This document shows positions 32,149-32,277 of a DNA stretch of 41,278 nucleotides, piece by piece (position 1 is the first letter of the stretch; each line of letters starts with the position of its first letter). Under the pieces are notes generated by a model, which had not been told where the DNA came from, ran no database searches, and saw only the letters and a program-made list of their open reading frames with translations. The DNA is taken from the IMG/VR virus record IMGVR_UViG_3300014682_000025. One strand, written 5' to 3'. A program made the position numbers and the translations under genes. The DNA comes from a virus (lineage: Duplodnaviria; Heunggongvirae; Uroviricota; Caudoviricetes).

Positions 32149-32184
32149 AAAACCCGCTCATCAGCGGGTTTTCTACTTTTTCTT
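32149..32184. terminator. Hairpin AAACCCGCT-CATC-AGCGGGTTT with T-rich tracts on both sides; candidate bidirectional terminator between cspF and Q
   Basis: Read from sequence; lies about 100 bp downstream of the Q stop on the minus strand. Confidence 0.5.
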
Positions 32185-32277
32185 AACGTCGGGTATACAA
32201 AGCCCATCATTGAAAAAATTTTATCCATATTTTTTGAAAAATGCAAACATCATGTCGCCATCTTCAGCAAAAATCAT

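Follow-up and report, generated by a model that had tools for sequence, protein, structure and literature searches.

The minus strand of positions 32145–32246 very probably carries the module that controls the late genes of a Qin-type lambdoid prophage, a reading to which we give a probability of about 85%. In this interval the window (the whole 41,278-nucleotide stretch of viral DNA analysed here) holds a putative lambda-type late promoter with a sigma70 pause element, followed by an intrinsic terminator hairpin. The architecture of the module is conserved among its relatives, and in Escherichia coli K-12 an RNA 3′ end falls in vivo on its minus strand. Judged by sequence, the Qin module has the features of a lambda/phi80-type late control region, and it is an ordinary, previously unannotated member of this well-known type. 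We found no description of the region in the literature on quuQ/ydfT or on a Qin late promoter, and a paper comparing Stx pR′ regions does not cover the QuuQ type. The assignment leaves the understanding of Q antitermination unchanged. It supplies a specific annotation for a stretch that, queried with 128 bases covering the module, had matches in 1,627 of 5,426 complete E. coli genomes, K-12 included, and no annotated feature under the match among the matches listed. It also accounts for an orphan 3′ end that is abundant in the published Term-seq data of K-12, and it identifies, in a group of Stx2c-converting phages, a control region between Q and stx2c that bears on toxin switch-on.

Sequence matches and annotation place the window in a Qin-type cryptic lambdoid prophage of E. 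coli. Several RefSeq chromosomes are 100% identical to it over 1.5 kb, and K-12 MG1655 is ∼99% identical over the intergenic stretch compared. The module begins 32 nt past the stop codon of the Q antiterminator gene ydfT/quuQ, on the same (minus) strand. This gene (32278–33030; ‘ydfT, antitermination protein’ in RefSeq) encodes 250 amino acids (aa) and is preceded on the minus strand by ydfU (DUF968; RefSeq and Pfam). Pfam assigns its product, QuuQ, to the lambda-Q family (Antiterm, PF03589, E = 4.5e-54) and gives a DnaJ-type zinc-finger match in it as well; QuuQ shares 33% identity with lambda Q and 36% with phi80 Q. Qin is a decayed (cryptic) prophage, and QuuQ activity there is putative. 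An assignment to the ‘Q21’ allele of the STEC literature was rejected; the LeJeune Q21 primer has no match at ≤3 mismatches in either the window or the Stx2c-phage locus.

Two RefSeq-annotated genes on the plus strand converge on Q: cspF (31644–31856) and ynfS (31911–32000), the latter encoding a 29-aa small protein; the transcripts of both head toward the hairpin. Downstream of the module, cspB, the holin gene essQ, ydfR, and the lysozyme gene rrrQ lie on the minus strand (annotation and Pfam), a gene order compatible with Q-dependent readthrough. A 51-aa open reading frame that overlaps the module (32091–32246, minus strand) has no Pfam match and was taken as spurious. No Rfam family matches the late-control module itself. 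The window's only Rfam matches, above the gathering score, are two cspA-type thermoregulators (31112–31504, upstream of cspB, and 28216–28601, upstream of a second csp gene), a sok antitoxin RNA adjoining hokD (35059–35233), and IS009 (3342–3540), all on the minus strand.

The predicted late promoter and its pause element

Homology and conservation support, at 32203–32246 on the minus strand, a putative late promoter of lambda type that includes a sigma70 pause element. Its −35 hexamer, TTGCAT (32241–32246), is identical to the annotated phi80 pR′ −35 and stands in register with lambda TTGACT. The 17-bp spacer TTTTCAAAAAATATGGA (32224–32240) is the candidate Q-binding element by homology to the phi80 protein_bind feature, and the −10 hexamer TAAAAT (32218–32223) was picked up by a promoter scan. 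The ungapped register with lambda pR′ puts the predicted +1 at 32211 (K-12 1642422, minus strand), the lambda start being the first A of AACGAT. In lambda, AACGAT (+1 to +6) is a −10-like sequence, read on the non-template strand, that holds sigma70-polymerase in a promoter-proximal pause where Q engages. The window has a homologous, putatively pause-inducing −10-like element at +1 to +9 (32203–32211): AATGAT at 32211–32206 and then GGG at 32205–32203, six bases (TTTTTC) past the −10. Written out, the window promoter is TTGCAT-17-TAAAAT-TTTTTC-AATGATGGG, and it aligns without gaps to lambda pR′, TTGACT-17-TAAATT-TGACTC-AACGATGGG. K-12 and most relatives likewise have AACGATGGG at the pause element, identical to lambda, and K-12 is one base apart from the window in the promoter/pause stretch. 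The pattern TANNNT-N6-AAYGATGGG has its sole zero-mismatch match in the 41-kb window at the module.

The first-pass annotation had judged that the interval downstream of Q probably holds a late promoter and qut site, and the ungapped register with both lambda pR′ and the annotated phi80 pR′ agrees with it at the level of sequence. Promoter prediction, which had been suggested as a check, carries no weight by itself. The generic scan did return one minus-strand site in the interval (TTTGCA-18-TAAAAT), but its seven sites in 2.2 kb, against 4.8 ± 2.1 expected, are not above chance. The −35 fits the consensus at just three of six positions, and there is no extended −10. Since the scan is at chance level, the case for the promoter rests on homology and conservation and not on a match to consensus. 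The RNET-seq supplement has no entry at the predicted start position.

TTTCAAA in the spacer takes the position of the Q site annotated in phi80, TCGCGGA. The candidate Q element does not resemble the lambda or phi80 sites in sequence, as would be expected if Q specificity differs.

One position of the pause element sets the window apart. At 32209 (minus strand, +3) the window has AATGAT, whereas K-12 and 79 of the 82 related loci described below have AACGAT or, once, GACGAT. With this T the pause element matches the −10 consensus at four rather than three of six positions, so the pause might be longer. The same base changes a C-G pair of a predicted 5′ stem in the leader RNA to U-G.

Conservation of the module among relatives

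To the 80 loci with a Q at least 95% identical that came from a scan of viral contigs we added a Stx2c phage and two chromosomal loci. The module is present in 82 loci, in 24 distinct versions. From the −35 to ∼+27 it is almost fixed among the 82 loci. The −35 TTGCAT is constant in all loci anchored on the end of the Q gene, an anchor that is independent of the promoter sequence itself, and the spacer TTTTCAAAAAA is nearly invariant where Q is at least 95% identical. The −10 occurs among the 24 variants as TAAAAT, TAAGAT, or TAGGAT, with changes at just positions 3 and 4; T1, A2, and T6 never vary. Conservation of the promoter in these 82 loci is partly linkage to a Q that is at least 95% identical, and the promoter case therefore leans on distant phages. 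In lambda, P22, SF6, mEp237, Edno5, and a Proteus phage, a −10 followed after 6–7 nt by AACG(A/C)TGG recurs downstream of Q, and A-CG-TGG is kept across these six and phi80. An Erwinia phage fits the −10/AACG(A/C)TGG order more poorly.

The sequences differ from ∼+28 onward, and within the module conservation is lowest between ∼+28 and +39. All 24 variants nonetheless have a T-run and a hairpin whose stem spans ∼+40 to +62, and at least six unrelated hairpin sequences occur among them. Immediately after the hairpin the DNA diverges completely. A fixed position combined with an exchangeable hairpin sequence is the pattern expected of a terminator that the Q strand requires.

Among species-representative genomes, only those of Escherichia and Shigella contain exact matches, bar one probable contaminant bin. 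The Escherichia-type late-promoter pattern is matched exactly in a 22.9-kb contig of a metagenome-assembled genome (MAG) labelled Veillonella parvula; this contig is probably a mis-binned enterobacterial prophage.

In Stx2c-converting phages the module, here with another hairpin, follows a Q that is 94% identical. Downstream of the module come a DNA methylase gene, two tRNA genes, and open reading frames at the expected stx2c position, and there is no other recognisable Q gene between the module and that position. In the Stx2c phage LC727877, whose record is almost unannotated, positions 4001–8701 of the locus hold ydfU-like and QuuQ-like genes, the module, and two unknown open reading frames, with the DNA methylase gene, tRNA-Met, tRNA-Arg, and open reading frames at the expected stx2c position further on.

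The terminator hairpin and its transcripts

The hairpin at 32149–32172 appears to be a bidirectional intrinsic terminator, as indicated by its fold, its conservation and, for the minus strand, Term-seq. On the plus strand it reads AAAACCCGCT-CATC-AGCGGGTTTT, with 10 pairs, five of them G-C, and a loop of four. The first-pass annotation had noticed a strong hairpin about 100 bp past the Q stop with a 9-bp stem (AACCCGCT/AGCGGGTT) and U-rich tracts on both strands. These observations hold: with the Q stop codon ending at 32278, the first minus-strand base of the hairpin (32172) comes 105 nt later, the 9-bp stem is the core of the 10-pair hairpin, and a U-run follows the hairpin on each strand, at 32152–32142 on the minus strand (UUUUGUGCUUU) and at 32169–32184 on the plus strand. 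Both terminator RNAs are unusually stable, at −23.2 kcal/mol for the minus strand (z = −9.2) and −15.1 kcal/mol for the plus strand (z = −6.7), and in neither case was any of 200 dinucleotide shuffles as stable. Measured from the predicted start at 32211, the hairpin spans +40 to +63.

On the minus strand the hairpin terminates RNA in vivo in K-12. A table of curated Term-seq 3′ ends of MG1655 (Adams et al. 2021, PMC7815308, Supplementary file 1) lists an ‘orphan’ 3′ end with the sequence ...GAAAACCCGCTGATGAGCGGGTTTTGTGC at MG1655 1642356 (minus strand), which maps through the K-12 locus to window position 32145. The coordinate occurs three times in the table, whose caption names three growth conditions, with read values of 103591 and 55367.6 in two of its rows (PMC7815308). 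The RNA ends in ...GCGGGUUUUGUGC-3′, 4 nt beyond the stem and 8 nt beyond its G-C core. A tR′-like terminator, as the first-pass annotation had supposed, is thus backed both by this 3′ end and by the hairpin and T-run of all 24 variants. The 3′ end does not fix the origin of the RNA, which could come partly or wholly from transcripts begun upstream in ydfU-quuQ.

A second ‘orphan’ Term-seq 3′ end lies at window 31977 (minus strand; K-12 1642188) in one of the three condition tables, directly after an A/T-rich hairpin (CTGCTTATTATATTATTAGCAG) and antisense to ynfS. It suggests either minus-strand transcription past the first terminator or a processed end.

Together, the predicted start and the Term-seq 3′ end delimit a predicted 67-nt leader RNA (32145–32211, minus strand). 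Two elements make up its fold, a small 5′ stem (+1 to +27) and, from +40 to +63, the terminator hairpin; the minimum free energy is −24.4 kcal/mol (z = −4.8). In the 5′ stem, the first four to five bases (AACG) can pair with a conserved CGUU at ∼+19 to +27. Sixteen such leaders were folded, the window (32185–32211, minus strand), lambda, P22, mEp237, the Proteus phage, and Edno5 among them. This small stem closes in 11 of the 16, with weak energies (z mostly −0.6 to −2.4), and it may be either an RNA feature or a constraint at the DNA level.

The ∼67-nt RNA might be a functional trans-acting small RNA rather than a by-product of Q control, and the precedent for this is StxS (PMC7547250), a constitutive short pR′-tR′ transcript of Stx phages that arises when transcription from a resident prophage's late promoter terminates just downstream. 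Processing of a longer precursor yields the 74-nt StxS, which binds Hfq and whose targets are proven (PMC7547250), so that pR′-tR′ transcripts can be Hfq-binding regulators. The K-12 RNA is abundant in Term-seq, and a ‘cspF.ydfT.IGR’ appears among the entities of Hfq RIL-seq. However, that entity has no stated strand, and a RIL-seq-based predictor scores it very low as a small RNA (0.0024). Conservation of the leader is lowest from ∼+28 to +39, the segment that separates the pause block from the terminator. A 66-nt multicopy prophage small RNA, HnrS (PMC13502914), was considered as the leader of sister variants and rejected, since it maps elsewhere. HnrS (EcOnc10-12; Tree et al. 2014, supplement) lies between the Rz/endopeptidase and terminase genes, in Sakai Sp12, antisense to the late genes and so on the opposite strand. 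On balance we find a trans-acting role unlikely. It is similarly a long shot that the ∼67-nt leader is a working, StxS-like regulatory RNA in K-12 and that the two-way terminator could couple cspF/ynfS to the late promoter by convergent transcription.

An alternative that dispenses with the promoter altogether is that the hairpin solely ends the upstream ydfU-quuQ transcript, and maybe cspF-ynfS as well, the promoter-like motifs in the gap being relics linked to Q. A terminator ∼105 nt past a stop codon would be unremarkable, Qin is decayed, the 5′ end at 32211 rests on prediction, and the −35 is weak in a scan at chance level. Against this, the promoter/pause layout is kept across Q proteins that are only 33–42% identical, and the −10 varies at tolerated positions alone. 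Functional Stx2c-converting phages have the module as the sole Q-linked control region upstream of stx2c. In K-12, moreover, the 3′ end at the hairpin is abundant and occurs in all three conditions, and a further 3′ end upstream, at 1644572 (minus strand), suggests that little transcription enters ydfU-quuQ. With these points weighed, a relic seems quite improbable to us, and we retain the reading as a late-control module with a promoter of its own.

The hairpin may also serve the convergent genes, as the first-pass annotation had suggested for cspF. Termination of plus-strand transcripts here would follow from the layout: in a sequence scan the hairpin is the first, and only, plus-strand terminator-like site past cspF/ynfS, followed at 32169–32184 by the T-run TTTTCTACTTTTTCTT (U-rich tract UUUUCUACUUUUUCUU). 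The full A-rich tract 5′ of the hairpin that gives this T-run is restricted to module variants in which a csp gene converges, and in one of these variants that gene ends ∼40–45 nt from the hairpin. Hfq-CLASH data from K-12 (PMC7213987) contain 20 hybrids with hspQ of a plus-strand fragment that the authors assign to cspF. The fragment maps to 32094–32130, which brings plus-strand RNA to within 19 nt of the hairpin. Use of the hairpin by cspF is therefore plausible. In vivo 3′ ends at the hairpin are on the minus strand; the K-12 Term-seq table (PMC7815308) has none there on the plus strand.

The 32094–32130 fragment itself is perhaps a 3′-UTR-derived, Hfq-bound RNA that ends at the common terminator. 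A Rho-dependent termination region on the plus strand, antisense inside ydfT at window ∼32804 (K-12 1643015; Adams et al., PMC7815308), implies plus-strand transcription within the Q gene and suggests that some of it passes the hairpin or begins beyond it.

That the hairpin serves cspF-ynfS only, with an incidental U-tract on the minus strand, we regard as very improbable; the plus strand does have the better T-run, the A-rich tract behind it confined to loci with a converging csp gene, and RNA reaching 32130, but the K-12 3′ end was measured on the minus strand, the table has none on the plus strand, and phage variants without a convergent csp gene have a hairpin and T-run equally far from the promoter.

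Proposed mechanism and comparison with known systems

If the module works on the lambda/phi80 paradigm, from which start, pause, Q binding, and Q-dependent readthrough are all drawn, a constitutive sigma70 promoter would start transcription at ∼32211, and the polymerase would soon pause as sigma70 re-binds AATGAT-GGG. The candidate Q element in the spacer and AATGAT-GGG at +1 to +9 would together form a qut-like site. Without Q, the polymerase would resume and terminate at 32145, freeing the ∼67-nt RNA as a counterpart of lambda 6S RNA. QuuQ bound to the spacer element would modify the paused polymerase to a terminator-resistant form, which could then read past this and later terminators, antisense to cspF and into cspB and the lysis genes essQ, ydfR, and rrrQ. 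The same hairpin, transcribed from the other strand, would form the end of the convergent cspF-ynfS transcript.

The lambda pR′-qut-tR′ region with its 6S RNA offers a close parallel. Both systems have a PF03589 Q, a promoter directly after Q, and a 17-bp spacer. In both a −10-like element and GGG stand at +1 to +9, AACGAT in K-12 as in lambda, and an intrinsic terminator defines, or in Qin is predicted to define, a short RNA. QuuQ differs from lambda Q in being only 33% identical and 43 aa longer and in its DnaJ-type zinc-finger match. The spacer sequence also differs, and a different Q specificity is therefore expected. The Qin terminator, at +40 to +63, would also be shared with a convergent gene, whereas that of lambda is far downstream: lambda tR′ lies at about +194, and the lambda sequence has a hairpin and T-run ∼190 nt past the start.

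The annotated pR′ of phi80 (NC_021190) resembles the Qin promoter in other respects. The −35 TTGCAT is identical, TGGATA spans the spacer/−10 junction, and AACGCTGGG follows 7 nt after the −10; phi80 is annotated with its Q site TCGCGGA just past the −35 and with TAGATT as the −10. The same register implies a terminator ∼46–74 nt past the start, and phi80 Q is likewise of the long form (269 aa, 36% identical to QuuQ). The two differ in the Q site (TCGCGGA in phi80, TTTCAAA in Qin), and the phi80 terminator has no convergent gene as a user, with a second phi80 terminator further downstream. In leader length Qin is short, as are phi80 and P22, and unlike lambda, where the leader is much longer.

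The late control regions of phages 82 and 21 also combine a promoter, a sigma70-dependent promoter-proximal pause, and a nearby terminator that Q overrides, but their Q82 and Q21 proteins belong to unrelated families, with binding sites and pause positions placed differently. Like StxS, the Qin leader would be a short RNA from termination just past a late promoter; Hfq binding and targets are features of StxS, whereas the Qin leader is known from a predicted start and a 3′ end. Bidirectional terminators between convergent genes similarly place a G-C-rich hairpin between an A-tract and a T-tract. The Qin hairpin departs from these in that one of its users would be a Q-regulated leader and its plus-strand use is inferred. 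For site recognition by lambda-family Q proteins, Qin would stand beside lambda and phi80 as a third sequence type.
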